27,851 nt of DNA from a phage. Position numbers and translations under genes: made by a program. Positions 1,067 through 20,016 of the stretch are shown here, piece after piece (position 1 is the stretch's first letter; each line of letters starts with the position of its first letter). The DNA lies in sequence record PZ583740.1; one strand, written 5' to 3'. The notes below the pieces were generated by a model, which was given only the letters and a program-made list of their open reading frames with translations, was not told the DNA's origin and searched no databases.

Positions 1067-1519
1067 ATGGCATACTCCGGGAAGTGGCAGCCAAAAAACG
1101 TTGCCAAGTACAAAGGAGACTGGAAGAAAATCACATACAGGTCAAATTGGGAAAAATTTGTATTTAATTGGTTAGATAATCATCCAGATGTGATACAATG
1201 GGGCTCTGAGACCGTAATTATTCCATATTTCAGTAATGCGGATGGTAAAAAACGCAGATATTACATGGATATGTGGGTGAAATTCTCAAATGGACAACAG
1301 TTTTTCTTTGAGGTCAAACCCAAAAAGGAAACAAGGCCGCCAGCAAAACCAGTCAATACGACCGCTGCAAGTAAGAAGAGGTTTATGAACGAAATGTACA
1401 CTTGGGCCGTTAACAAGGATAAGTGGAAAGCAGCGCAGGCCGTAGCCGATAAAATGGGCATCCAGTTTAGATTGATTACTGAAGATGCGCTTAGAAAAAT
1501 GGGATATAAGGGTTTATAA
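1067..1519 (+). CDS. 4: Head completion protein gp4
   Basis: 150 aa, MAYSGKWQPKNVAKYKGDWKKITYRSNWEKF..., length and sequence match T4 gp4; divergent from gene 53 as in T4. Confidence 0.85.
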   Translation: MAYSGKWQPKNVAKYKGDWKKITYRSNWEKFVFNWLDNHPDVIQWGSETVIIPYFSNADGKKRRYYMDMWVKFSNGQQFFFEVKPKKETRPPAKPVNTTAASKKRFMNEMYTWAVNKDKWKAAQAVADKMGIQFRLITEDALRKMGYKGL

Positions 1520-2247
1520 TGTACGATTGTTCAGATTTTAACATCACAAATGGCGAGATAGTGGGACAAGGCGATTTTAATAAATCAAAAACTTTGATAT
1601 TTGTAAAGTGCTTTATATGTGAAGAAACATGCAAATACAAAGCAACTGTTTTAAAGCATAAGTTAAAAACAAAAAGTTGGTGTTCTAATTGTAATTTAAA
1701 ACGTTCTTATGGTGAAAGCAAATTAATATCTGAATTAGATGCAATCACAAGAATAAATTCCGTGAATCCATTGTATAGTTTTGATAAATGGGATACCACA
1801 TATTCAACTTTTACAAAATCAAAAGCCTATATAAAGTGTTCTACATGTTCAACCAGTTGGATTACAAATCTAAACAACTTTACAACAAAAAACAAAGGAT
1901 GTCCAAACTGTTGTCACAAAGGATTTAACGCAAAGAAACCTGCTATTGTTTATGTTAATAAAATAGAATATCCGGGCGGAACTGCTTTAAAGTATGGTAT
2001 AACTTCCAATCATGATTTTAGATTGTGGCAGCAAAATCATTTTTCCAAATGCATTAGTTCCAAATTATATTATCGAGAATTTGAACTGGGTGCACAAGCC
2101 AAAATGTTAGAATCCGCAATATCTGTATTATATATAAAAGACAGAGGTTATTTGAATAAAGATATTATGGTCGATGGCTATACAGAAACCTTACCATACT
2201 ATTTAAAAAATGATTTGATTAATTTTATAGAAGGATGGAAAGGATGA
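1519..2247 (+). CDS. Cys-rich putative endonuclease: N-terminal zinc-ribbon pairs plus GIY-YIG-like C-terminal half
   Basis: 242 aa. Two CxxC...CxxC units ([13 protein letters not shown]; CSTCS..CPNCC). C-terminal [33 protein letters not shown] resembles the I-TevI GIY...YVGSAKDFEKRWKRHF core. Start overlaps gp4 stop (TAATG), stop overlaps gp2 start (ATGA). Confidence 0.45.
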
Positions 2248-3071
2248 GTATTTTTACATTTATCAATGAATCTGCAGATAAACCAGGTCCGAAACCCAGT
2301 AAATCAGAACAACAATGGGTTGAAATAGGGGTTGAATTTTATACAGCAAAAGAAAAGGGAATGACCTCGAAGAAGTTTGCTGAAGAGAAAGGAATCAACT
2401 ATTCGACCTTTACCAAAAGCATGTCAAGATATCATTCGAGAATTCAGACTGCTTATAAAGTATCCAAGCTCAAAAAGAAACCTGCCGGTAAACTTACGAA
2501 GGCTGAACGTCAGCTGATAATGGTGAATAGCTTTAGAAAGAGCATAAGAGATAAGATTGCTAACGAAGGCGCTGCAAGCAACACCAAATCTGCCAGATGG
2601 TTCGCTGAGACAATTAAGAAATCAGTTCGGGGCCACGTAACGGCTAAACCTCAACCGGGTAAGATTTATGCTTATATCTATGATGCAAAGCATAAGGATA
2701 CTCTTCCGTACTGGGACAAATATCCGTTAATCATTTATCTTGGGCTAGGTAAGCACAATTTGATGTATGGTTTGAACTTGCACTATATTCCACCGAAGGC
2801 ACGTCAAGAGTTCCTTGAGGAACTTCTTAAGCAATATGCCAATACTCCTACGATTACGAACAAGACTCATCTGAAGATTGATTGGTCAAAAGTGAAGGGA
2901 TTTAAAGGGGCTGACCAGATGATTAAAGCATATATACCTGGCAATATAAAAGGTACTATCACTGAAATCAAGCCCAGCGACTGGGCAAATGTGGTATTAC
3001 TCCCCCTTCAGCAGTTTTTTTCAAAAGGCAAAAGATTTTCTTCACAGAAAGTATGGAGAAATTCACTTTGA
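2244..3071 (+). CDS. 2: DNA end-protector protein gp2
   Basis: Position between genes 4 and 3 as in T4; about 275 aa from ATG at 2244 (AAGGA upstream). Sequence recall for gp2 is weak, so the call rests largely on synteny and size. Confidence 0.65.
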
Positions 3072-3727
3072 ATTATCAGTTTATATATTCATCGTTAATT
3101 GAAAGGGCCCGTAACAGGGTCCTGATTTCATATAAAGAATCTCATCACATCATTCCGAAATGTATGGGTGGTTCAAATGCTCCGGATAACTTAGTCGATT
3201 TGACTCCCGAGGAACATTATGTAGCCCATCAACTATTGGTTAAAATATATCCTACAAATCCAGGTTTAAGTTTTGCTGCCACATCTATGAGTCAGTCAAG
3301 CAAGTATTTGAAACGCAATAATAAATTATTTGGCTGGTTAAGACGCAGACACGCTGACAATATTTCTAAAAGCCAAACCGGTAAAGTTTACTTTAATAAT
3401 GGTGTCAAATCGATAAAACTATTTCCATGGGAAGATGTTCCGGATGGGTTTGTCAAAGGAAGACATTACAGCCCAACCAAGGGTACAAAACATTCTCGCA
3501 ATAATGGACATTTTAAAAATAAAGAGATTCAGGACGAATTGAGAAAGCGCCGGTGGGAAAAAGATAGGCAAGAAATGTGTAAAAACTTCGGAGTTGATAC
3601 CATCGAGCAAGCTCGAGAGTTGGTCCTAGCATATAAAAAGGAATTGCATCCTCGATACTGGGTAAAGCCAATGTTGGAACGTTATCCGTTTATGACTAAG
3701 CTAAGACTTAACACATTAATAAAATAA
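3053..3727 (+). CDS. HNH homing endonuclease (free-standing)
   Basis: 224 aa with HNH motif [29 protein letters not shown]; inserted between genes 2 and 3, overlapping the gp2 3' end by 19 nt. Confidence 0.8.
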
Positions 3728-3812
3728 TCTATTATCGGTCAGTGTTATTGGTAAGGACAAAAGGTCTAGAACCATTATAACACTGATTGTTTTAAAGCAA
3801 ACAAGGTGCACT

Positions 3813-4412
3813 ATGTCAGGTTTATATAATCAAACTAACACGACTAACTTTATATTAGAGGTGAGCGATTCAAACCTCACACAGACCTTTAAACTCAACG
3901 TTCAAGACGTTACCCTCCCAGGAGTTCACATTCCAGTGACGGATGTCCCTGGGGGAACACAAGGTATAAATCGCTCCAGTCTTCCTGGTAGTACAATAGA
4001 ATTCGACCCGCTGATTGTTAACTTTCTGTGTGACAAAGACCTAAGAGCGTGGCTTGACATCTATAAATGGATGCTCTCGCTTAACAACTACATCACACAC
4101 GAATCAAAAGCATGGAATCCGAAGGGTCGTCCCGAAGCGGTCACGCTTCACATCTTAGATAACAACAAGGACAAAATTGTCATGTCAATCCATTACTATG
4201 GAGCATGGCCGTCCGACCTGTCAGAGATTCAGTATTCATATAAAGAAGATTCTGACCCGGCTATCATTGCAACAGCAACTTTTAACTTTAAGTCTTTTGC
4301 TGTAGAAATTGATGGTATAATAATAGAAGGTAGACCACAGATTGATAGTAATGCAGCAATGCAACAGGAAATCAGGTCTAAGTCAATGCATCCATCTATG
4401 AGAAACGTATGA
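3813..4412 (+). CDS. 3: Tail completion / sheath stabilizer protein gp3 (assigned mainly by position)
   Basis: 199 aa ORF between genes 2 and 1, stop overlaps gene 1 start (ATGA); RBS AAGGTG upstream. Confidence 0.55.
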   Translation: MSGLYNQTNTTNFILEVSDSNLTQTFKLNVQDVTLPGVHIPVTDVPGGTQGINRSSLPGSTIEFDPLIVNFLCDKDLRAWLDIYKWMLSLNNYITHESKAWNPKGRPEAVTLHILDNNKDKIVMSIHYYGAWPSDLSEIQYSYKEDSDPAIIATATFNFKSFAVEIDGIIIEGRPQIDSNAAMQQEIRSKSMHPSMRNV

Positions 4413-5085
4413 AATTAATTGCGATTGTGGGTAAAAAACGCAGTGGTAAAGATACGACTGCTGATTATGTTATTAGTCAAAACGGAACAAAGTGGCAGCT
4501 TGCTGGTCCGATTAAAGAAGCGCTTTATAAAGCGTGGATTCGTCAAGACCTGCCACACAATTTGACCCTGGAAAATTTTGATGGACAAGGTTACGACCGT
4601 GAAAAAACCTTAATAATGAACAACACCGAAGCTTATATTCTTCTGGTTGATGCTCTTGAATGGTTGAAACAACAATACAATCTTGACCTTCCGAATCCAG
4701 ATATGGTTCGTAAAATCATTGAATTTCACACACTAAATAATGTTGAGCCCTGGACAGTTAGACGTTTCATGCAGACCCTTGGAACTGATATTGTTTGTAC
4801 AGAGTTCGACAGCATGTTTTGGATTAAAACTTTTGCATGCGACTATCTTGACAACCTCTATTCTGGATATAAATATTACGTTGTCCCAGATGTTCGTCAA
4901 AAGAATGAACTTGATTCGCTTCGGGCGATGGGTGCTACAATAATCTTTGTAGAACGCGATGAAGCAAATCATTCTACTGATACACACATTACGGAAGCTG
5001 GACTTCCACCACTAGCTAGTGACATTGTTATTAAAAACGATGGCACACTCGAAGAACTTTTTGATAAAATTAATAAGGTAATATA

Positions 5086-5086
<1 letters not shown>
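4409..5086 (+). CDS. 1: Deoxynucleoside monophosphate kinase gp1
   Basis: 225 aa with P-loop GKKRSGKDTTAD; MKLIAIVGKKRSGKDTTADYVIS...LAGPIKEAL matches T4 gp1. Confidence 0.85.
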
Positions 5087-7350: not shown

Positions 7351-7536
7351 ATGAAACGTTGTGAATTAATTAGAAATGTTACTGCCTTTGTTGCTGTTAC
7401 CACTTTTGGTTTTAGCATGTTTGCTGGCTTTATGTTGAATATGCTTTCAACTTCTGAGAATATAATCTCTTTAGTAGTTGCATTTTTAATTGGTTCAATC
7501 TCTTTCGTTATGGATAAAATCTCTAAAGGTGAGTAA
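7351..7536 (+). CDS. Small predicted membrane protein (two hydrophobic helices), function unknown
   Basis: ATG at 7351 preceded by strong GAGGAG RBS; 61 aa with hydrophobic stretches [23 protein letters not shown] and [17 protein letters not shown]. Track ORF 7279..7536 starts at an upstream TTG. Confidence 0.5.
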
Positions 7537-7550
7537 AATGTATAAAGTGT

Positions 7551-8519
7551 ATGCGGATTATCAGAAAGATTCGCCTGCAAGGCTTCACCAGCGGTGAATG
7601 GGTAGCTCGCGAGAAGATTCATGGTACCAACTTTTCATTAATCATTGAACAAGACAATGTGACATGTGCGAAACGCACTGGACCTATCCTGCCTGCAGAA
7701 GATTTCTATGGTTATGAAATTGTATTAAAGAATTATGCTGATTCTATTAAATCTGTGCAGAAACTTTTGCAGGATATTAATTACCAGGCATACCAGATTT
7801 ATGGTGAGTTTGCCGGGGCAGGTATCCAGAAGAATGTGGATTACGGTGATAAAGATTTTTATGTATTTGATATCCGCGTTACTAAAGAAGATGGTTTTGA
7901 ATCCGTCCTGACTGACACCTTGATGGAAGCATTCTGTATTATCCATAAGTTTAAGGTTGCACCGCGCCTGGCTACAGGTAGTTTTGAAGAATTAATTAAG
8001 CTCCCTAATGACCTGGATTCTGTTGTCCCTGATTACAATTTTACAGTGGATAACGCGGGTTTGACTACAGCAAATACCACTGATTTTGTTGCAAAGGTGG
8101 AAGGTAAAGTATTCACTGCCGAAGGATTTGTATTAAAACCTGATGTTCCTGCATGGTTACCTAACGGCGAGCGTGTAGCGATTAAATGTAAGAACTCTAA
8201 ATTCAGTGAAAAGAAAAAGTCTGATAAGCCTATTAAGGCTGCAGTGGTTCTGAGCCAAAATGATATGGATTTACTGTGGAATTTCACTGATTATGTGACT
8301 GTTAACCGTATCAACAATGTTATCAGTAAAATTGGGGAAGTAACACCGAAGGATTTTGGAAAGGTAATGGGGTTAACAGTCCAAGATATTCTGGAAGAAG
8401 CGGGGCGCGAAGGTCTTGAATTGTCCCTGACGGAAAATCCTGTTGAAGTTAAAAAGCAACTTATTGTAAATGTAAGAGAAACATTAAGACATGTTTGGAT
8501 TGCATTAGTTAGTGAATAA
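7551..8519 (+). CDS. rnlB: RNA ligase 2 (Rnl2 / gp24.1)
   Basis: 322 aa with nucleotidyltransferase motif [20 protein letters not shown] and strong overall similarity to T4 Rnl2; true 5' end uncertain (ATG with good RBS at 7538 is in another frame). Confidence 0.85.
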
Positions 8520-9850: not shown

Positions 9851-9858
9851 TATTTATA
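9851..9858 (-). promoter_or_regulatory. T4-type late promoter (TATAAATA on minus strand) for gene 24
   Basis: Reverse complement of 9851-9858 is TATAAATA, 25 nt upstream of the gp24 ATG. Confidence 0.55.
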
Positions 9859-9864
9859 AAAGTT

Positions 9865-9894
9865 GTTTACAACCAGATTAAGATAAGACATAAT
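9865..9894 (+). promoter_or_regulatory. T4-early-like promoter (GTTTAC, 18 nt spacer, CATAAT) for the plus-strand 93-aa ORF
   Basis: GTTTAC at 9865-9870 and CATAAT at 9889-9894; AT-rich upstream. Confidence 0.4.
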
Positions 9895-9935
9895 GATTCC
9901 ATACTGAGTTAACAAACAAAACCTGGAGTTTAAAA

Positions 9936-10217
9936 ATGAACAAAGCAACTTTCCTTCTGAACACCTTTAAAAATCTGGAAATTGAAGTTATTGCCTTGGT
10001 CAACAAATACCCAAATGGTGTTAATGGTAATGCTCTGAACAAACTAGTTAAAAAATATGAAAACTTAGCATATGACACTGATTTCTGGTGGAATGGTAAT
10101 TATTCTACTCACACTAAAGATAAAAATGGTAACTGGTTGAAACTTCAAGAAAACAATGTTAACTTCAGAGACCTTATCAAGCGCCGGGTAGAAGTTCATT
10201 TAAATGGTATGGTATGA
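9936..10217 (+). CDS. Hypothetical protein, opposite-strand gene between head genes 24 and 23
   Basis: 93 aa ORF with GGAG RBS 8 nt upstream of ATG, own promoter-like element and a downstream hairpin terminator; no recognisable motif. Confidence 0.5.
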   Translation: MNKATFLLNTFKNLEIEVIALVNKYPNGVNGNALNKLVKKYENLAYDTDFWWNGNYSTHTKDKNGNWLKLQENNVNFRDLIKRRVEVHLNGMV

Positions 10218-10224
10218 AAACAAG

Positions 10225-10252
10225 AAAGGGACCTCAAGGGTCCCTTTTTATT
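10225..10252. terminator. Bidirectional rho-independent terminator after gene 23 and after the 93-aa ORF
   Basis: Hairpin GGGACC-TCAAG-GGTCCC (10228-10244) followed by T-run on plus strand and T-rich tract on minus strand. Confidence 0.7.
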
Positions 10253-10267
10253 TAACTTAATCTAGGA

Positions 10268-11827
10268 TTAAATTCCTTTAACATATACGCGGCGGAAGTA
10301 ACCGTTCAAGCCAAGGCTGTTAACGATGTCCGGCATGCCGTTCTGAATGCGCTTGGTCGGAGCCTGAGCAGCAGGGTCAGCAAACGGGTTGATACCGATA
10401 CCGTAACGGGTTTTGAAGCCCATAACCGGCTGGAAGTTTTTCGGGTCAGAACCACGCAGCGGGGTCAGTGCAACATATGGTGCGTAGTAGATACCAGCAT
10501 CCATTTCGTTAGCGCCTTTGTAACCGATGGTGAAGTAATCTGCACGAGCATACTGGTCGATATAGACACGGTATTTGCCACCCAGAACACCAGCGAACAC
10601 AGCTTTAGTGGTGTCAACGTTGAAACCTTTACCCAGACCCTGAGCAGCATAACTAACAGAAGTATCAACAGCAGCCAGCACGTTAACTACGTTACGGGAA
10701 GCGATGATGAAGTTACCTGCACCACGACCGGTCTGACGAGCGATTTCAGCGGCTTCTTTATCAATCTGGAACAGTAAAGCTTTGAAGCTTTCACCAGCCC
10801 AACGAGCACCACGGATATCAATCGGGTCCTGGAAGTCAAACACACCAGCTTTAGCGCCAACGGTGTTGGTCATACCAGATTTACCAACCTGAGCGGAGTA
10901 GTTAATCCAATCGATAACTTCACGGTTGATTTCCAGCATAATTTCGGTAGCCAGAATACCACTCAATTCGGCATCAGCATCCATACCATGAACAGCGCGC
11001 AGGTCCTGTGCCAGTTCGATGGAGTAGCTTGCTTTCAGCTGACGGGATTTAGCTTCGATAACTTGTTTATCGATACGGAAGCCCATTTCGTTCCACGGGT
11101 TATCAGTAGAACCGTTAAAGCCTTCCTGCAATTCGGCGATAGAAGTAGCCATACCTTCAGCGATTTCTGCCAACTTACCAGCTTCGAGCAGTTTGGTAAC
11201 TTCAGCGTCAAGTTTAGCAGCATCAGTAGCACCAGCATCAACGGTTACAGCTTCAACAGCCTGGTAGTGTGCAGAACCGGTTGCTTCGAAGAAGTGAGAA
11301 TAAATTTTACCAACTTCCAGAACTTTGCTTGCAGCCAGTGCTTCAAAAGTCTGAGCAGCGCCCTGACCAGAGAACATAGCGTTCGGAGCATACATCGGAT
11401 GGAAAGCTTCTTTAGCACCAGCAGCGACAGGGTCTTTACCGTATACTGCACGCAGTGCAAATACCTGGCCAGTCGGGTTGTTCAGAGGCTGTACGCCACA
11501 AATATCAAACGCAATCAGATGCGGGATAGCACGACGAACCATACCCATAACTGCCGGCCCAATCTGAGTTACTGCACCAGAGGTCTGGCCAGCAGCGATA
11601 TTGGTAGCATCATAACCATGGTCACCACCGATTTCAGCTTCGGTCAGGAAAGAACCAAATGCTTCGGAGATTTTTTCGTCACGGTATTCAGGAGCGGTCA
11701 GAATATCTTGTTCCTGGTTTTCAAAGATTTTAGCGATGATAGCTTGTTTAGAAGCACCAACGATTTCAGGAAGAGCTTCGTTTTCCAGCAGAGCGGACCA
11801 TTTTTGAACTAATGCATTCTTTTTCAT
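10268..11827 (-). CDS. 23: Major capsid protein gp23
   Basis: 519 aa; near-identical stretches to T4 gp23 (AIIAKIFENQE, GAVTQIGPAVMGMVRRAIP, DPKNFQPVMGFKTRYGIGINPF, YFRRVYVKGI). Confidence 0.95.
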   Translation of the reverse strand: MKKNALVQKWSALLENEALPEIVGASKQAIIAKIFENQEQDILTAPEYRDEKISEAFGSFLTEAEIGGDHGYDATNIAAGQTSGAVTQIGPAVMGMVRRAIPHLIAFDICGVQPLNNPTGQVFALRAVYGKDPVAAGAKEAFHPMYAPNAMFSGQGAAQTFEALAASKVLEVGKIYSHFFEATGSAHYQAVEAVTVDAGATDAAKLDAEVTKLLEAGKLAEIAEGMATSIAELQEGFNGSTDNPWNEMGFRIDKQVIEAKSRQLKASYSIELAQDLRAVHGMDADAELSGILATEIMLEINREVIDWINYSAQVGKSGMTNTVGAKAGVFDFQDPIDIRGARWAGESFKALLFQIDKEAAEIARQTGRGAGNFIIASRNVVNVLAAVDTSVSYAAQGLGKGFNVDTTKAVFAGVLGGKYRVYIDQYARADYFTIGYKGANEMDAGIYYAPYVALTPLRGSDPKNFQPVMGFKTRYGIGINPFADPAAQAPTKRIQNGMPDIVNSLGLNGYFRRVYVKGI

Positions 11828-11848
11828 GTGTTGTATAACCTTATTAAA

Positions 11849-12667
11849 TTAAGAAATTCGTGATGCTGCGAGAGCAGACAAGTCCGCGAAGGACAGGGTA
11901 GGCTTGGCGCCTTTTTCTTCAACTGCTTCTGAAATGTAATTCAGTGCCGCAGCATCGTCTACATTTTTATTTATAGCGGCTTCGGTGATTGGTTTGTCGG
12001 TGGGTTCTACCTGACCTTTAACCATTTCAACGATAGCGCCAATTTTGGTACCGAATGCATCAGAGTATTCCATGCCTTCTACCAGAGAACCAACTTTTTC
12101 TTTCTGAGATTCAGTCAGGTCTTTAGTTGCTTCAGTCAACGCAACTTCACGTTGGACATAATTGATATAAGCATCACGCTTAGAAACTTCTTCGAACAGG
12201 TTAGCGGTTTCTTCTTTCTGTTCAGCCAGTTCTTCCTGCATTTCTGCAACAACATCGACAGATTCTTCCGGAACAACAACGTTGTGCTCAACGAACAGTT
12301 CTTTCATGCCGGTGAACATGGATTCGAACAGGTCAGCTTTAATGCCACGGTCGACAGCCAGTTTATTTTCAGCAAGCCATTCTTTAGCAACGTGGTCCAG
12401 GAATTTAGCTGCAGATTCTTTCAGTTTTTTCTCTGCTTTTTCGTCGGATTCTTCTTTATTCTTTTCGACTTCTTCTTCAGCTTTTTCAGCGATGGCGTGA
12501 ATGTGAGATTCTGCCAGTTTGATGGCGTGTTGCTTGACGGTAGCTTCGAATACAGTGCCGAAGGTAGCTTTCGCTTCCGGGGACAAATTAACTGATTCGA
12601 AAATACTATCGAGAGCAACGGAAGCATCGATATTCTGAGCTTCAGAAATGAGTTGTTCTTTAAGCAT
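11849..12667 (-). CDS. 22: Prohead core scaffold protein gp22
   Basis: 272 aa, highly acidic coiled-coil-like protein between genes 21 and 23, as in T4. Confidence 0.8.
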   Translation of the reverse strand: MLKEQLISEAQNIDASVALDSIFESVNLSPEAKATFGTVFEATVKQHAIKLAESHIHAIAEKAEEEVEKNKEESDEKAEKKLKESAAKFLDHVAKEWLAENKLAVDRGIKADLFESMFTGMKELFVEHNVVVPEESVDVVAEMQEELAEQKEETANLFEEVSKRDAYINYVQREVALTEATKDLTESQKEKVGSLVEGMEYSDAFGTKIGAIVEMVKGQVEPTDKPITEAAINKNVDDAAALNYISEAVEEKGAKPTLSFADLSALAASRIS

Positions 12668-12696
12668 TTTGTAGTCCTGTTGTTAAGATATACATT

Positions 12697-12704
12697 TATT
12701 TATA
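12697..12704 (-). promoter_or_regulatory. T4-type late promoter (TATAAATA on minus strand) for gene 22
   Basis: Reverse complement of 12697-12704 is TATAAATA, 29 nt upstream of the gp22 ATG; overlaps gp21 stop codon. Confidence 0.5.
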
Positions 12705-13338
12705 ACGTCTTTAAAGCCTCTGCGAGAGCCATAAAGGCGTCATCGGCACTGGTATCGGCAACAGCCGTTTGTGATTCTGTAATCTGCTTTGGTTTGACCC
12801 AAGCGTCCGGAGCACTTGGCCCCCATACTGCGTCTACTCCAACCGTCAATTTAAAACCTTCATTAACGATGTTATAACCTTTTGCTGATTTAGTCAGGGA
12901 ACCAAGTCCACGACTAGATACGCCAGGAATCCAACCTGCTCTTATATTCGCAGCAAGTTTATCACCTGGACCATGGTCGCCTTCTATAATACGTGCGCGG
13001 CCATATACATCATTCCCTTTCCACCACATTTCCTCGATAATAATTGCTGCCTGCATAGGGTCAACGTTTGCACGAGGTGGATGGTTTAATTCTCCAAGAG
13101 ACTGCTTGGTTTCAACCTGTTCGACGATATAGTCCGCAACAGCTTTTTCCAAAATATGTTTAGGATAAAGTCGTTTATTACGGTTAACAACTTCAGCTTG
13201 TAGGAAAATACCTTCAATATAAAGTCCTGGCTTTAAACCGCTGCTGGAACCATCATGAGATTCCAACATCGGTACACCATCTTTAATTTCGCCCGGTTGA
13301 CCCCAGTGTTCGATTAGTAACTCTGGTTTCTGTTCCAT
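12700..13338 (-). CDS. 21: Prohead protease gp21
   Basis: 212 aa, [21 protein letters not shown]...; same length as T4 gp21 and matching sequence. Confidence 0.85.
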   Translation of the reverse strand: MEQKPELLIEHWGQPGEIKDGVPMLESHDGSSSGLKPGLYIEGIFLQAEVVNRNKRLYPKHILEKAVADYIVEQVETKQSLGELNHPPRANVDPMQAAIIIEEMWWKGNDVYGRARIIEGDHGPGDKLAANIRAGWIPGVSSRGLGSLTKSAKGYNIVNEGFKLTVGVDAVWGPSAPDAWVKPKQITESQTAVADTSADDAFMALAEALKTL

Positions 13339-13766
13339 TAATCAAGTCCGAATGCTTTACGCTTAGCTCGAGCTTTTTTGCGCTTGCGCTCTGCTCTGAT
13401 TTGCGTAGATGGGTTTGCTCTTTTCGTTTTAGTAGCCAGACGGGCAATTTGACGACGTTTAGCTTTAGAAAGACCGGTTGTTTGGAAAGCATTACGCTTA
13501 CGAGTAGCTAGGTCTTTTGTGCGGGTTAACTCACCGCGAGACGATACATGTTTAACGATAAATTCGTTAAGCTGAACACCTTCATTCAGAGCGCCGATAA
13601 CCGTTGCTTTTTCGTATTCACCGGCTGCAAACATGTTTTCTACAATAATATTTATATCGTCTTTTTCTAAGGCTTCGGATAATGAATCAAATTGTCCCTG
13701 AGCTTCTTCGGAAACACTTTCAATGTTTTCAAGAGTTAATTCGTAATCATCAGGGATAATAAACAT
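13338..13766 (-). CDS. 68: Prohead core protein gp68
   Basis: 142 aa with basic C-terminal tail; position between 67 and 21 as in T4. Confidence 0.7.
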
Positions 13767-13993
13767 TATTCATCGTCCTCATCGTCAGATTCTTTTTTGT
13801 CTTTCTTTTCTGCTTTGCCGTCGTCCTTGCCTTCATCTTCTTTAGGCTCTTCGCCTTCAATCATGATGGAACGTGCAATTTCAATCTTACGTTCTTCAAT
13901 CAAACTACCGCATACTGGGCCAATGTTTTCAGCAAAATATTTGCGAACGGCTACGAGGTCGTTTGATTTAATGGCTTCAAATAAATCATCCAT
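13766..13993 (-). CDS. 67: Prohead core protein gp67
   Basis: 75 aa with acidic C-terminus; position immediately downstream of gene 20 as in T4. Confidence 0.7.
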
Positions 13994-15567
13994 TAGAAAT
14001 CCTCTTCTTCTTCTTCAGGGTTTTGGAAACGAGCCTCTTTGGACTCCAATTCAATTTGCTTAGCTTCTTGATTAATTTCTTCATCAGACATCTGGAGGAA
14101 ATCCTTCATAGCCGTTTGATGTGAAATATATTTACCGATAAACGGTTCAGCCATCGTTAGCATATTGATTCTGCGTTCCATGATTTCTGCATCTTTCATT
14201 TCGGTGAAATAGCTATCACGGTTGAACGTAACTTTAATATTATTTAGTTCCTTGTCCCATTCCTCTTCTGAAATAATTTTTTTCAGGATAAGGTTTGTTT
14301 TAAGCGGGTCGAGGAAAACTTCTTCAAATTTATTCTGTAGCTGTCGAATCCATTTAGAGAAATTCAATTCATCGCGAGTAATTGTCGCACCTGCATCAAA
14401 CATAACGCCGCTGTTCTGGTCGTTAGGGATACGAGATAATGGAATTCGGAGCGCCTGATATAGGTTGTTCTTAAACCAGCGAACATCGTCCATATCCGAC
14501 ATGCCTTGTGCACCCGGGAGTGTATCAACTTCAGTGACTGCTTTACCATCACGACGTTGCAACCAATAGTCTTCTGTCATTGACATGTTGTGCTGTTGGT
14601 TTTTGATTTTACCCGTAGTTGCATCATATACGACACGGTTTTTCATCGTGTTCATAATATGTTGCATGTGTGCTGCTGCTTTACGAGACGGCATATTCCC
14701 GGTATCGATATAAAAGACTCGGCGGTCTGGGGCACGAGTTATACGATAAATGACTAAAGCATCTTCTAATAGTTTTAATTGGTTTGCAGGTTTAATTGCT
14801 CGTTGCAAGTATCCGATGATATTCTTGCCACAACAATCGAGTAATCCAGAATGCGCATATACAATCGCCGCACGAGGAATTTTTATTTTAGTACCTGCTT
14901 CATATATACGACCATCGGCACAATAACTTTCATGGCCAGTATCGTATACAAAATATTCTCTGTAACCGTCGACAATTTTTGTACCGTTTTCCATGCGTGT
15001 AACGATTTCACGGATGAACTGGATTTGTCTTGGGTCAAGGCGACGAAGTTCTTGAACTCCATCTTTAAGTTTTGATGGGTTGATAATTTTGTGGAAGAAA
15101 ATTCGAGAATCCACATACCAACGTTTAAAGTGGTCAGAACCTTTGCGCTCGAAATTAAGGAGGTTATTGACTTCCGAGAATTCTTCGAGGATTCGGTCTT
15201 TAATTTTCTGACTAAATTCGGTAGCATCAAGGTTAAGAGCTACAACATCTTTACCGTCTTCAAAAACGATAGCATCAGACACAATTTCTTGCACTGCGTT
15301 ATCAACTTCATAATTATTTAGTAAGTTGCGGTAGGTGTCAATTAATTCCCTGGTATTTTTTACTTCAGGTTCATTGCTCCCGAACATCTGTTGCATCAAT
15401 GCATTATACGGGACGTTTTGTTCTTGTGACTCAATTTCACGAGCCCCATCATCAAACTTCGGCCCGGTCATTGACTCTAAATTATTTTTTTCTTGTTGCT
15501 TATATTCTTGTTCATCTTCTTTAGCCCAAGGCTTAAGAAAATTTAGTATTGTGTTAAAACCTGCCAT
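13993..15567 (-). CDS. 20: Portal vertex protein gp20
   Basis: 524 aa; long stretches matching T4 gp20 ([58 protein letters not shown]). Confidence 0.9.
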
Positions 15568-15595
15568 TAGAGTCTCCGAAGTTTGTCTATTACTT

Positions 15596-15603
15596 TATTT
15601 ATA
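15596..15603 (-). promoter_or_regulatory. T4-type late promoter (TATAAATA on minus strand) for gene 20
   Basis: Reverse complement of 15596-15603 is TATAAATA, 28 nt upstream of the gp20 ATG; overlaps the stop of the upstream endonuclease gene. Confidence 0.5.
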
Positions 15604-16186
15604 TTGGAGTTCGGGTACAATTTTTATGATATCGAACAATCGCAGAGCGAGTGGACTCCGTACCACATACGGGACAAATTGCACGAGGTAAATTTAATGA
15701 TTTTCCTTTATTTGGATGTTCTTTACCAAACATAGGATTATTTTCACCGCTCATTGCTTTAGAATGGTCTGGTCGTTTTCTTCCTGATAATGCTTTGGAT
15801 TGTCTTGGACGTTTAACACCAGTATTGCTTTTATTTCTTTTATCGATAGATTCCTGTGTCCAAACCTTACCTTTCATCGACATACCAAAAAATCCATTTG
15901 GTTGAGCTAATGACATATTTATATAGTTTGGTGATTTAACCACATTGTATAATTTTTGTACTCGTAATTCTTCTTCAATAGCTTCTTCGTGCGTATTAAA
16001 TGTTTTTAAGATACGAGTTTTAAACAACTGAGGATTATCACGTAATTCATTTTTCCAAATGGTTTTATATTTTTTAGAACCAACGGAACCATGATAATTT
16101 TCAGTTATTCGTTGAATAGTTGTCGAGCCGATGTAACGACGGGGAAGGAGATTCCCCGTATATACTGTAAGATAAGTGCAATACAT
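15599..16186 (-). CDS. GIY-YIG homing endonuclease (Seg-like)
   Basis: 195 aa; N-terminal YLTVYTGNLLPRRYIGST (GIY...YIG), NUMOD3-like repeats (SGRKRPDHSKAMSGENNPMFGK), C-terminal CPVCG...HKNC zinc finger; GGAG RBS. Confidence 0.8.
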   Translation of the reverse strand: MYCTYLTVYTGNLLPRRYIGSTTIQRITENYHGSVGSKKYKTIWKNELRDNPQLFKTRILKTFNTHEEAIEEELRVQKLYNVVKSPNYINMSLAQPNGFFGMSMKGKVWTQESIDKRNKSNTGVKRPRQSKALSGRKRPDHSKAMSGENNPMFGKEHPNKGKSLNLPRAICPVCGTESTRSAIVRYHKNCTRTPI

Positions 16187-16232
16187 TCAAATTTCTCCAC
16201 TTCATTGTTTGAATGTATTTATTATGTCACAA

Positions 16233-16598
16233 TTATTCCCACCAGTCAATTGCGAACGTCGCTTCGAACGTCTCAATCTCATTATTGGAGTCCCAATCCA
16301 TCTGGACTTCCCCAACGTTGGTTGGCCACATGCCGGTAATAACAACTTCTTTCGTAACGGTCTTGCCATCACGATGGAACTGGCGGACAGTAGCGGTTTT
16401 CTTATAATCAGCAGGAGCTGCACCGGTGATTTCGTTAGTCATACCGTGACACAGATTTTGCCAATCAACAATTGCTTGACGAACTTTATGAGCATCGTCG
16501 TTATAAATCGTAATAGTCCAGTCATCAAATGTACGGTCACCCGCCACGTTGATTTTACGGTTCATGTAACCGACCGGAACTTTTTCTACAATGCCGAT
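16233..16598 (-). pseudogene. 19: Tail tube protein gp19, 5'-truncated fragment (about 42 N-terminal codons missing)
   Basis: In-frame region ...IGIVEKVPVGYMNRKINVAGDRTFDDWT...NEIETFEATFAIDWWE matches T4 gp19 residues ~43-163; an in-frame TAA at 16599-16601 and the gp11 stop at 16636 leave no room for the N-terminus. Confidence 0.6.
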
Positions 16599-16635
16599 TT
16601 ATCGCTAATGTGTTTTAGCGTGTTAGTCGTTGTCA

Positions 16636-17301
16636 TTACGATACTCGCTTATAATGGTAAAGTGAAATTGCGCCATTTGCTGTGCCACCTGATAATGTCT
16701 GGGTTGAAGTTCCAAGATATTCCCATGAACCATAACCACCGCGCGGTTGCTGTGTAATAGTCTGGCTAAGCGTACAACCATATTGAGTGAAAGGTACAAA
16801 ATTATGGTTTTGGTAGTCGTTATATGTAATATTTAATATAGACTGGTCCACACTATCAATTGCAGAGCTTGACACAATTAAACTATCAGCAACAGCCGTC
16901 AGCAAAGCATCGTTAACCTTGGAAGCAACTAATACAGCCGAATCCCCGACAATAACCTCAACTGGAATACCAAAAATGAAAAATAAAACAGTATCACCAA
17001 CCCCAGCACCAGAAATAGAACCGGTGAATTTAATTTTATCCGACTGGCTGATTGCTGCCGGAGAAAGGTTATTTGTATTAGTAATTACACTACCAACTGG
17101 AAGCTCGTATCGAAATGCGATATCATCTATTGCGCTCTGAACTGTTGGGTAAAAAATACCTTCGGTTGTCTGTGTTGCGGATGGGCCGCCGATTGCTCGT
17201 TGACCCATAACAGCCGTAATATTTTTTGATGTATTTTGAAATTCTAAGCAACTAGCAAGGCGGGAAATTACTCCAGCCTTTTTATTCGTTAATGTTTTCA
17301 T
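16636..17301 (-). CDS. 11: Baseplate wedge / short-tail-fibre attachment protein gp11
   Basis: 221 aa, M..NKKAGVISRLA...YHYKRVS matches T4 gp11 start and end; start overlaps gp10 stop. Confidence 0.8.
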   Translation of the reverse strand: MKTLTNKKAGVISRLASCLEFQNTSKNITAVMGQRAIGGPSATQTTEGIFYPTVQSAIDDIAFRYELPVGSVITNTNNLSPAAISQSDKIKFTGSISGAGVGDTVLFFIFGIPVEVIVGDSAVLVASKVNDALLTAVADSLIVSSSAIDSVDQSILNITYNDYQNHNFVPFTQYGCTLSQTITQQPRGGYGSWEYLGTSTQTLSGGTANGAISLYHYKRVS

Positions 17302-19112
17302 TAAGCAATCCTTACCCAGCGATGAGCAATCAAATATGGAGGCATTGTATAAACCGGTTGAGCTTGAGGGTCTTGTGCCTGATTAATGGTGGCTTTATCT
17401 TCTCTGTATTTGGTATAAGCTGGACCTTGTGCATCTGGGTCTACCTGGCAACCGCCGACAACAATCGGACCATTATCATCAACAACTAATACTTTCTCAT
17501 CGGTTTCAAGTTTAGGTACGTTTATATCTTTAATATGAACTTCAACACTACCACCTGTGCCGCCTGCCGTCGCTTGTGGGTTACCACCAGAATCCAGGTC
17601 ATTATTGTTTGTATGGAAGTTTGAGGCAGGGTCGTCCGACCAGGCAACGATTACACGTTCTTTCAAACGTTTCCATGAACCGAATCCCATATAAGTAACC
17701 GGGTTATTCGGGTTAACCGTATTTTCGTAAATTGTACCGACCGGATAGAATAATTCAAAGATAGCGCCAACAGAAGATGGAACAACTTCCTGAAGACCGA
17801 CTGGTTCAACGTTCGGTGCAAACGGATTATCAAAATCTGTAATACGTACACGACCAGTTAAGCTCAATGTATTTCCCTGAGAAACATAAAGAGTGTCAGT
17901 CTCATCACGGATTTCATCCATGGTCATAGTTGTGCCGATATCGTTATTGTACCAAATGACCGACAGAATATCACCGTCTTCAAATTCACGATAAATGCTA
18001 ATACCTTCGATGCGGTTGTCATCATCAAATTGCAGCAAATAATCCTGGGTTGATTCAGACCAACTGCCACCATTTGCGCTACATTCTGCCGCAGTGGAAC
18101 CTTGCGCACCTTCGCAATAAAATACTGGAGTTCCTGCAGTCCCGGCTTGGTGTTGTAAAATACTGTTAATGAATACCTGACATGCATTTGGGTTAATTGG
18201 ACTACCCGGAGAAATACCAAGTTCTTCAATTGTAAAGGTGTGTTTGGTTGTCAAATCCGTAACAATCAAAGAACCATTAATTGTTGTTTCTTTGGTCCTG
18301 TCCTGACTACGAACAAGTACATCACGACGATTATACGAACTACGCCATTGTGCAATGCCATCATTAAATGTTCGGATGATAACCGTATCACCTTCAGCGC
18401 ATGGCATTTTCAGACGGATGCTTTTACCATCAAGCGCAACGATTTCACCAGGGTTTGCACCAGGGGAACCAAATTCAGCATTCACCGGGTCGAAAATATC
18501 ATCTTTACCATAAAACAGGTCGTTACCACGATGTTTGACTTCTAAGTTCGATACGCTATACGGAATAGCACCAAACACATTGATAAAGTCAGTTTGTCCT
18601 TCGGTAGCAATAAACTGTTGGGATGCAACTGTAGCAACGTCGTTATTTGAAATTTTATCGACTTGTTTATTATCGATATATTCCCAACGACCTGGTGAAC
18701 AATATACAAGTTCAAGGTCGGCTAAGTTGCGTTTAATTTCTACTGGATTTGGTGAGCCTTTAATCGTATCCCCGACTGCAGGAACAATTGTCACCGGGTT
18801 GATTTGCCAGGTAGCAAACACATCACGCAATCGAATTACATAATTGTATTCTTGAGTTGTTCCTTTCGGGAGGACGACTCGAACCGCACCGGCTGATGTA
18901 TCGATGGTATAGCTTCGACCCATAACAGCAGACAACTCGGTGCCTTCTTGTGTAGTCCAAGTTTTCCATGCACCAGCCGCATGAGGATTTTCACCATCAC
19001 CCAGCTGATAATAAAGGTCGTCAAAGTTATTGTTTATTTTTTGACCGCCGAGACGAAGGTAATCACCAGTACCATCATCAACCATATTGCCAATTTTTAA
19101 ATTCTGTTTCAT
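17301..19112 (-). CDS. 10: Baseplate wedge protein gp10
   Basis: 603 aa, MKQNLKIGNMVDDGTGDYLR...NPNNPVTYMGFGSWK...NNDLDSGGNP...AHRWVRIA matches T4 gp10. Confidence 0.9.
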   Translation of the reverse strand: MKQNLKIGNMVDDGTGDYLRLGGQKINNNFDDLYYQLGDGENPHAAGAWKTWTTQEGTELSAVMGRSYTIDTSAGAVRVVLPKGTTQEYNYVIRLRDVFATWQINPVTIVPAVGDTIKGSPNPVEIKRNLADLELVYCSPGRWEYIDNKQVDKISNNDVATVASQQFIATEGQTDFINVFGAIPYSVSNLEVKHRGNDLFYGKDDIFDPVNAEFGSPGANPGEIVALDGKSIRLKMPCAEGDTVIIRTFNDGIAQWRSSYNRRDVLVRSQDRTKETTINGSLIVTDLTTKHTFTIEELGISPGSPINPNACQVFINSILQHQAGTAGTPVFYCEGAQGSTAAECSANGGSWSESTQDYLLQFDDDNRIEGISIYREFEDGDILSVIWYNNDIGTTMTMDEIRDETDTLYVSQGNTLSLTGRVRITDFDNPFAPNVEPVGLQEVVPSSVGAIFELFYPVGTIYENTVNPNNPVTYMGFGSWKRLKERVIVAWSDDPASNFHTNNNDLDSGGNPQATAGGTGGSVEVHIKDINVPKLETDEKVLVVDDNGPIVVGGCQVDPDAQGPAYTKYREDKATINQAQDPQAQPVYTMPPYLIAHRWVRIA

Positions 19113-19981
19113 TATACCGGTACTCCGATTGTTTGGGCGGAAATTACTTTAATAGCGAGCTTCATGGCAGTGGGTGAGCTTATAGCCGCCTGAATGATAT
19201 CCTGGTTATCAATTCTAAAATCGATGGCATATATCTCATCTTCTTCATTAGTTTGTCCACGTCTGATTACAGCGTATTCTGTGCTATATACCTTGCGGTC
19301 CTTAAGGTCGATGTAAAGTAATATTTCTGATGCTTTGTATTTAGTTTCGTCTGTTGAAATAGCTGTCAGCATCAATTTGATAGTTTTATAATCTGCGCGG
19401 AAAGCAAGTGGAATATCACGAACAACCGAGCTCATATTGTATGTTTTGTCGAGCAATACAGATTGGTTGCCAAACATACTTTCAATTTTGTAGTCCCAGG
19501 TCCCTACGCCGTTAGCATCGTCAATACACCACAATGTAATTTTTGTATAAGGCTGAGTAAATTTCATTTTGTTCGTTGCAGCAGTCAGGAATGAATCCGT
19601 GCCTTGTAGTTCAACTTCCAGAGGCAACGAGGTGGATAATGAACCATTGGAGTTAATAAAGATAACACCTTCGCCTGCTTTACCTTTTGCAATTCTTGCA
19701 GTGATAACACCTTCGGCAGTATTGACATCTCGCATAGAACCGAGAGCAACAGTCGAGTTCCATTCGATGATATTTGTGGCTTTTTGATAGTAGCCAGTCG
19801 CATGAAGTACCTGGGAGTTTTCTCCATTGTTCACAGAGTACAGACGCTGGTCGCCGAATGTATTATACAAACTGTCTAAATCCACGTTCAGTTTACGACC
19901 GCCTTCATATAGAATATCACCGGTGCTGGCGTTACCAATCTCGCCGATGTCTACTAATAATTTTGGGGTTTGATTAATCAT
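19112..19981 (-). CDS. 9: Baseplate wedge / long-tail-fibre socket protein gp9
   Basis: 289 aa, ...GEIGNASTGDILYEGGRKLN...HATGYYQK matches T4 gp9. Confidence 0.85.
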   Translation of the reverse strand: MINQTPKLLVDIGEIGNASTGDILYEGGRKLNVDLDSLYNTFGDQRLYSVNNGENSQVLHATGYYQKATNIIEWNSTVALGSMRDVNTAEGVITARIAKGKAGEGVIFINSNGSLSTSLPLEVELQGTDSFLTAATNKMKFTQPYTKITLWCIDDANGVGTWDYKIESMFGNQSVLLDKTYNMSSVVRDIPLAFRADYKTIKLMLTAISTDETKYKASEILLYIDLKDRKVYSTEYAVIRRGQTNEEDEIYAIDFRIDNQDIIQAAISSPTAMKLAIKVISAQTIGVPV

Positions 19982-20008
19982 AGGTAAGCCTCGTTATTGA
20001 TATAGCTA

Positions 20009-20016
20009 TATTTATA
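20009..20016 (-). promoter_or_regulatory. T4-type late promoter (TATAAATA on minus strand) for gene 9
   Basis: Reverse complement of 20009-20016 is TATAAATA, 27 nt upstream of the gp9 ATG, with a GAGG RBS between. Confidence 0.55.

Follow-up and report, generated by a model that had tools for sequence, protein, structure and literature searches.

The MotA/AsiA middle promoters of phage T4 combine a MotA box, (a/t)(a/t)(a/t)TGCTTtA, with a TAtaaT element at a distance of 12 ± 1 bp (PMC2988021, Hinton's review). Two of them, PuvsY and P34i, belong to the replication origins oriF and oriG, each of which combines a MotA middle promoter with a downstream unwinding element; no middle promoter is known near oriE (PMC3016281). 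Hairpins are used differently at the T4 e, soc and I-TevI genes, where they sequester the ribosome-binding site (RBS) and early read-through transcripts are untranslatable, a switch mechanism that is well known in T4 (PMC3014915). Promoter-early stem-loops (PeSLs) carry an early promoter and a terminator on the same strand and occupy hyperplastic regions (PMC4122927). Finally, RNase III hairpins of the T7 type lie between the cistrons of polycistronic phage mRNA.

We compare these systems with an element located between genes 2 and 3 in a stretch of phage DNA of 27,851 nucleotides (sequence record PZ583740.1), the whole of which is referred to as the window. Like PuvsY and other T4 middle promoters, the window site has a MotA box and a TATAAT at 13 bp, with the core seen in the uvsY and rnlB homologues; unlike them it opposes all flanking genes, has no ORF downstream and is overlapped by a hairpin-forming inverted repeat. 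With P34i/oriG and PuvsY/oriF it shares an orphan character, an orientation antisense to late genes (P34i is inside gene 34) and a similar -10-proximal sequence, but it is intergenic rather than inside a gene and its downstream GC, a measure that does not discriminate here, gives no evidence of an unwinding element. The hairpin resembles those of e, soc and I-TevI in being placed in a late-gene leader of a T4-type phage, yet its stem holds no RBS and its 5′ arm no late promoter. Since there is no late-promoter motif inside the hairpin, the classic T4 e/soc-type switch does not apply. The likeness to PeSLs is that of a small intergenic composite of promoter and stem-loop adjoining a gene-insertion site, but here the putative promoter is MotA-type (with a 15-bp gap to a poor -35), is on the opposite strand and occurs in a core late-gene spacer. 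The interrupted stem of about 20 bp between cistrons of a polycistronic phage mRNA recalls the T7-type RNase III hairpins, although the window hairpin is a predicted fold and the account of T4 post-transcriptional control in PMC3014915 omits RNase III. What appears to be new is an unlisted, strongly conserved, backward-facing middle-promoter motif; the MotA/AsiA promoter type itself is already known.

The gene 2-3 spacer and its minus-strand motif

The window is closest to T4-type phages of the genus Gaprivervirus (VR7, VR20, VR25, SP18, RZ and P479), with 94-99% identity. The genes around the element are as follows.

1067-1519, plus strand: gp4, head completion
1519-2247, plus strand: endonuclease-like ORF
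2235-3071, plus strand: gp2, DNA-end protector
3053-3727, plus strand: MobB-like homing endonuclease ORF
3813-4412, plus strand: gp3, tail completion (gene 3)
4409-5086, plus strand: gp1, dNMP kinase

A sequence-only reading had drawn attention to a 9-bp inverted repeat in the gap between the endonuclease ORF (3053-3727) and gene 3 (3813-4412), and had correctly put the length of this spacer at 85 nt. Upstream of gene 3 the late-promoter motif TATAAATA has a sole plus-strand copy, at 1031, before gene 4; there is none on this strand between 1038 and 4868, and none within or after the hairpin. Following the paradigm of PMC3014915, gene 4, the ORF at 1519-2247, gene 2, the endonuclease gene and gene 3 would thus constitute one late transcription unit, in which the hairpin is intercistronic. 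The window as a whole contains 10 copies of TATAAATA against 2.4 expected. They are found on the plus strand at 1031, 4868 and 6162 and on the minus strand at seven sites from 9851 to 20016, a distribution that indicates a late-gene strand switch inside the window.

Read on the minus strand, the hairpin loop, the 3′ arm and 13 nt beyond it make up a candidate middle promoter that faces away from gene 3. Its parts, and the gene 3 signals beside it, are listed here.

3804-3808 and 3813-3815, plus strand: gene 3 Shine-Dalgarno (SD) sequence AGGTG and start codon ATG, both outside the hairpin
3793-3802, minus strand: putative MotA box GTTTGCTTTA, a pattern and matrix match to the consensus wwwTGCTTtA (PMC2988021), abutting the gene 3 SD on the other strand
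3780-3792, minus strand: 13-bp promoter spacer, conserved in length and not in sequence
3774-3779, minus strand: TATAAT, a sigma-70-type -10 hexamer, invariant in 11 of 11 lineage representatives
3767, minus strand: predicted transcription start, an A 6 nt after the hexamer, in register with the mapped T4 promoters, where this distance is mostly 6

The consensus for a MotA box near -30 is matched at 3802-3793 and the pattern TGCTTnA-N11-14-TAnnnT exactly at 3799-3774, both on the minus strand. PuvsY of T4 starts at the A equivalent to position 3767 of the window. For scoring, a matrix comprising MotA box, spacing and -10 element was derived from 31 of the 58 mapped T4 middle promoters (PMC2988021, Table 1). 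Scored by leave-one-out, these 31 promoters centre on a median of 15.8 bits (interquartile range 10.7-17.6) and reach 21.3 at most; with 20.4 bits the window site ranks first among the 55,630 positions of the two strands. The second- and third-best matches in the window are both sensibly placed. One, on the plus strand at 4288-4321 (4316, 19.0 bits), is in the 3′ end of gene 3 and upstream of gene 1, like P1 of T4; the other, also on the plus strand at 7433-7466 (7461, 20.3 bits), precedes an ORF at 7551-8519. The phage VR7, of the same genus and 94% identical here, encodes motA (VR7_gp276) and asiA (VR7_gp268), two genes that lie outside the window. A plus-strand sigma-70 match, TTAACA-16-TATTAT, returned by the promoter scan was rejected as native because its -35 is supplied by the endonuclease insert.

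We infer promoter activity from this sequence match, and we caution that some good consensus matches in T4 reportedly yield no transcript (a result attributed to Stoskiene et al. 2007). Downstream of the putative promoter there is no gene-sized ORF, merely ORFs of 41-63 amino acids antisense inside coding genes. A terminator-like, G+C-rich hairpin, GCCCAGTCGCTGGGC followed by TTGATTT, is present at 2972-2986 on the minus strand, inside the 3′ end of gene 2. Its equivalent in RZ (L001, 1273-1287) could end an antisense RNA of about 145 nt in phages that carry no insert; this antisense terminator inside gene 2 is absent in T4 and the match is at chance frequency.

How far does the motif extend among relatives? 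All Gaprivervirus genomes found share the 85-nt spacer at 97.6-100% identity. In relatives with gp3 80%, 71%, 54% and about 50% identical the sequence ACCATTATAC stays constant while the stem arms change; on the minus strand this constant block reads G-TATAAT-GG, with TTTGCTTTA 13 bp before. In 41 of 58 loci encoding a gp3 homologue, the minus-strand site before gene 3 falls among the best three of about 7,000 positions, and in 24 it is the best; the 13-bp spacing is kept in nearly all loci. Loci in which genes 2 and 3 overlap (Klebsiella-type), or whose synteny differs (RB49-like, Proteus-type), do not have the site. Over 11 lineage representatives the top-base frequency is 1.00 in the -10 hexamer, 0.76 in the MotA box, where GCT is invariant, and 0.49 in the spacer, a column pattern to be expected of a bipartite protein-binding site and not of an RNA helix. 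Conservation of the putative site spans T4, Gaprivervirus, Dhakavirus, Mosigvirus and Karamvirus-like phages. One distant relative (L044, approximately 1331-1470) has two tandem-spaced copies of GGGCAAAGCGTTGCTTTATTATA upstream of gene 3.

In T4 itself the gene 2-3 spacer contains AATGCTTTA-13-TATAAT on the clockwise strand at 75,988. This site scores 21.8 bits and so outscores the neighbouring mapped promoters P1 (20.2) and P57A (18.1). Across the T4 genome, sites of at least 17 bits number 25 on the usual strand as opposed to two clockwise, which are those of the gene 2-3 spacer and the modA-srd spacer. The table of 58 mapped T4 middle promoters does not include the gene 2-3 site and has nothing near 76.0 kb or 11.9 kb (PMC2988021), the GenBank T4 records show no promoter feature at either clockwise site, and a search of the available literature found no T4 TSS or antisense map. 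The sequence GGTATAATGnnTCTAAGyCC occurs exactly four times in T4, at the two clockwise sites and at the mapped PuvsY and PnrdC.7. The modA-srd copy (NC_000866, 11,850-11,900, plus strand; L061) is a backward consensus middle promoter by its sequence and, with 23.0 bits, the best in the T4 genome. A paralogue of about 45 nt of the gene 2-3 block, it directly follows the modA stop, has no hairpin and is not among the mapped promoters. A scan of viral contigs returned this copy only from relatives 98-100% identical, too close to gauge conservation.

Copies are also present in the window's own lineage. The VR7 homologues of PuvsY and PrnlB carry a 17-nt core, TATAATGGTTCTAGACC, identical to that of the window minus-strand site, and a BLAST search with the spacer gives a second match in each complete Gaprivervirus genome. 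The core differs by genus (TCTAGACC here, TCTAAGTCC in T4) and is common to the copies within one genome. Just after the -10 there is a near-palindromic box, contained in TATAATGGTTCTAGACC in VR7 and the window and in TATAATGrnTCTAAGyCC in T4. It is found at 3764-3779 (minus strand) in the window, at 1189 and 8491 in L072, and at 115385, 53339, 75986 and 11883 in T4. That the box is alike within a genome and different between genera suggests concerted evolution or a factor-binding site.

The hairpin in the window and in relatives

The positions given for the original repeat, 3740-3748 for CAGTGTTAT and 3777-3785 for ATAACACTG, are all right, as is the 28-nt interval, but the perfect repeat is of 10 bp (3739-3748 / 3777-3786) and so longer than the 9 bp noted. 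The folding of the RNA, which had been proposed as a check, predicts a stable structure, a composite hairpin of 54 nt at 3736-3789. The outer stem is of 13 bp, including two G.U pairs, and there are two inner helices of 4 bp, 3749-3752/3771-3774 and 3755-3758/3764-3767.

3736-3748, plus strand: 5′ arm of the outer stem, CGGTCAGTGTTAT, from the fold; contains the earlier 9-mer at 3740-3748
3749-3776, plus strand: the 28-nt 'loop', with the two inner 4-bp helices and the conserved block GGTCTAGAACCATTATA
3777-3789, plus strand: 3′ arm of the outer stem, ATAACACTGATTG; on the minus strand it corresponds to the promoter spacer and the first 3 nt of the -10 hexamer

The hairpin has a ΔG of -23.9 kcal/mol compared to -13.4 ± 2.6 kcal/mol for shuffled sequences (z = -4.0), none of the 200 shuffles being as stable. 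It ranks 14-15 among 11,118 sliding 60-nt windows on both strands, and is kept in the minimum free energy (MFE) and centroid folds of a 261-nt context. The fold of the minus strand is weaker, at -20.6 kcal/mol and z = -3.65. The bare repeat is at chance: perfect inverted repeats of at least 9 bp with loops of 3-40 nt number six in the window against 4.2 ± 2.0 in dinucleotide shuffles. The weight is carried by the extended structure and by conservation, not by the 9-mer. The stem ends at 3789, 15 nt upstream of the SD at 3804-3808, with the ATG at 3813, and the description of the repeat as just before the RBS was accurate. A tail, AUUGUUUU, follows the stem in the window only; a U-run after the stem is absent in JS98-like phages, T4 and RB69, and a terminator scan did not flag the hairpin as an intrinsic (rho-independent) terminator. 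Rfam covariance models searched over 3000-4500 with E up to 10 gave nothing relevant, the sole match being a spurious snoRNA (E = 6.6) elsewhere in the region.

The junction in phages that carry no insert, a second comparison that had been proposed, also contains the repeat, which is identical in 30+ Gaprivervirus genomes. Neither lack of a stable structure nor absence from relatives, then, speaks against the repeat, which folds stably and recurs in them. Hairpins are present in nearly all Tevenvirinae spacers, with differing stem sequences. In the window, JS98-like, L025 and L026 lineages the hairpin encloses the -10 block, the stems being CGGTCAGTGTTAT/ATAACACTGATTG, CCCGGCCAGT/ACTGGCCGGG and CCCAGTTT/AAACTGGG. 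In T4, RB69, L028 and L041-46 it is positioned between the gene 2 stop and the block, at +7 to +58 for T4 and RB69. The L019 hairpin surrounds the MotA box and has a T-run at its end. As the position varies between clades, a single shared hairpin mechanism is not established. The length of stem totals approximately 17-21 bp, with internal loops, in every lineage, and the z-scores of several lineages are modest at -0.1 to -1.6.

On which strand does the structure form? Lineages with G.U pairs favour the gene-sense fold (-28.0 as opposed to -17.6 kcal/mol in L041, -29.5 and -15.7 in L042, -23.2 and -19.4 in T4), with L008, where a C.A in the stem favours the other strand, as a counter-example. 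When 29 spacers were folded the gene-sense fold was the more stable in 12, with mean z of -1.49 against -1.05, and the window in a 116-nt context gives -23.5 kcal/mol for the gene-sense strand and -26.4 for the minus strand. In the window-type arrangement the backward promoter would transcribe one arm only, so that gene-sense RNA (or DNA) is the sole candidate to form the hairpin across all arrangements. Given the inconsistent strand preference over the 29 spacers, the sense-strand case rests mainly on this point about the transcribed arm.

Mismatches are tolerated at two stem positions. In the JS98-like set, which aligns cleanly, pairing is kept in 94% of cells and one stem position passes through the series A-U to G.U to G-C. 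There is one compensatory pair, a number equalled in 75 of 500 shuffles and so not significant. The RNAalifold pair table for nine spacers was unusable because MAFFT put the window-type rows out of register. We consider that the hairpin is probably, though not provably, selected. In Serratia-type relatives (L016 and L017, approximately 1440-1500) a CAGGG by the gene 3 SD has two potential partners, a CCCTG upstream, in which case the -10 block is enclosed, and a CCCTG downstream that overlaps the SD, and this is possibly an alternative-structure arrangement.

Possible functions of the element

On balance we think it somewhat more probable than not that the native gene 2-3 spacer holds a conserved middle promoter, antisense or orphan, and that a hairpin formed between cistrons of the sense mRNA overlaps it. 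A few minutes post infection, AsiA-remodelled and MotA-recruited sigma-70 RNA polymerase would start at about 3767 on the minus strand and run toward lower coordinates, entering the late cistrons upstream from their 3′ end in the antisense direction, first the endonuclease gene and then genes 2 and 4. With no ORF downstream the product would be a non-coding antisense RNA and/or convergent transcription, and it might damp pre-late read-through expression of the upstream late genes. The late polycistronic mRNA, originating at the TATAAATA at 1031, would carry the plus-strand copy of the element. There the sequence 5′ of the promoter block is predicted to pair with the promoter spacer region to give the 54-nt hairpin, most likely acting on mRNA stability or processing, with a loop that holds a stretch complementary to the 5′ end of the putative antisense RNA.

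T4 transcription is among the best-mapped of systems, yet a site that scores above most mapped middle promoters is unlisted, faces the wrong way and occupies a core late-gene spacer. If the promoter fires it would add either antisense control of late genes with timing set by MotA or a further promoter of the origin type, and either outcome bears on two questions that Kreuzer and Brister leave open: which of the T4 origins work through R-loops, and what oriE is driven by. A stronger proposal, speculative and in our judgement rather unlikely, is that an active backward promoter represents an unrecognised conserved function of the Tevenvirinae, be it a MotA-timed antisense RNA or a third R-loop origin promoter, with a +1-box subclass (TCTAGACC/TCTAAGTCC). 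As an antisense device it would keep late genes 2 and 4 silent up to the point where late transcription takes over, the second copy in T4 shutting off modA and modB; as an origin, a promoter related to those of oriF and oriG would supply the 'missing' middle promoter near oriE. The evolution of the +1 box in concert within each genome hints at a trans-acting factor.

It is unlikely, if not negligibly so, that only the sense-strand hairpin matters, the motif being silent or cryptic and the stem acting as a 3′-end stabiliser of the late 4-2-3 mRNA, as an RNase III- or RNase E-type site, or as a leaky terminator. The fold is stable both alone and in context, and an interrupted stem of about 17-21 bp, which with internal loops is the geometry of phage T7 RNase III sites, recurs in every lineage. 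In the window AUUGUUUU follows the stem, Acinetobacter-type relatives have a canonical stem and T-run at the same place, and the T4 site is not among the mapped promoters. Such an explanation, however, does not account for TATAAT and GCTT at a fixed 13-bp spacing being the most conserved feature while stems turn over, nor for a core equal to that of the uvsY and rnlB promoter homologues. The terminator variant also has to contend with the absence of a flag from the terminator scan and of a U-tract in the JS98-like phages, T4 and RB69.

Could the backward promoter be the promoter of an R-loop origin, or a recombination hotspot, of the oriF/oriG type? Its transcript would remain hybridised and prime a clockwise leading strand through genes 2, 4, 53 and 5. 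The sequence is consistent with the required middle-mode promoter, PuvsY (the oriF promoter) has the exact core of the T4 gene 2-3 site, and P34i (the oriG promoter, which reads GTATAATGGTCCCAGAG) is a further case of an orphan middle promoter that runs antisense to a late gene. The T4 site is 3.3 kb from the annotated oriE and points at it, but such proximity is within chance, and the same core is found in the ordinary gene promoters PnrdC.7 and VR7 PrnlB. Downstream composition and duplex stability are also ordinary for T4 promoters: GC is 0.28 in the window and 0.32 at the T4 site, compared to a mean of 0.324 ± 0.056 over all mapped promoters, with oriF at 0.30 and oriG at 0.38, values at which neither GC nor nearest-neighbour energy discriminates. 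To our knowledge oriF and oriG are the only T4 origins to have emerged from plasmid screens, which we count against the origin explanation, and we hold it to be decidedly unlikely.

The sequence-only reading had offered control of gene 3 translation by the hairpin, and this, whether direct or in the manner of the T4 e/soc/I-TevI switches, we consider very improbable. The hairpin is 15 nt upstream of the SD, but SD and AUG are unpaired with it in MFE and centroid folds alike, TATAAATA is absent within or after it, and in T4 and RB69 the hairpin is even farther from the gene 3 start. With the gene 3 RBS unpaired and no late promoter inside the hairpin, translational control is unsupported.

The homing-endonuclease insert

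The gene upstream of the spacer had been called an HNH gene. Assignment to the homing endonucleases, on the plus strand, holds (phrog_655, E = 2.4e-56) but the HNH family match is weak, and the VR7 annotation is MobB-like. Many relatives do not have about 660 bp at this position. In RZ and SP18, which carry no insert, the distance from gene 2 to gene 3 is likewise 85 nt and the spacer is identical at every base. The junction reads ...GGAGAAATTCA | TAATCTATTATCGG... in the phages with no insert and ...GGAGAAATTCA | 659 bp | TAATCTATTATCGG... in those with it, which defines the insert as 3066-3724.

3066-3724, plus strand: 659-bp homing-endonuclease insert, from alignments; outside the element, marking its boundary
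3725-3736, plus strand: conserved TAATCTATTATC, kept in the JS98-like, T4 and RB69 spacers; the TAA at 3725-3727 is the native gene 2 stop

That the insertion left the repeat behind as a scar or by-product, or that the repeat is due to chance, is scarcely credible: it adjoins a mobile gene and the 9-bp repeat alone is at chance frequency, but the insert-less RZ, SP18 and VR20 carry the same 85-nt spacer and the same hairpin, the insert boundary (3724/3725) is 12 nt upstream of the start of the stem, the extended structure is an outlier at z = -4 and the block is conserved across genera. The proposal that it is a remnant of the endonuclease insertion is thereby refuted, and there is a lesson for annotation in that a hairpin beside a homing endonuclease is not necessarily part of the mobile element.

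A related insert occupies the same insertion point in a Dhakavirus-like locus (L012), so that the conserved TAATCTATTATC junction is probably the homing site, into which the endonuclease would have homed repeatedly. The endonuclease ORF terminates on the native gene 2 TAA (3725-3727) and may start at the ATG at 3053, inside native gene 2 sequence. Insertion alters the C-terminus of gp2 from ...RNS* to ...RNSL*.

The ORF at 1519-2247, between genes 4 and 2, is also mobile-looking, with a match to the phrog_681 endonuclease (E = 2.5e-29) and a weak match to the DUF4379 treble-clef family. VR7 and SP18 have no equivalent and genes 4 and 2 abut there; RZ has the 3′ part, and in P479 a 'homing endonuclease' ORF occupies the same position.
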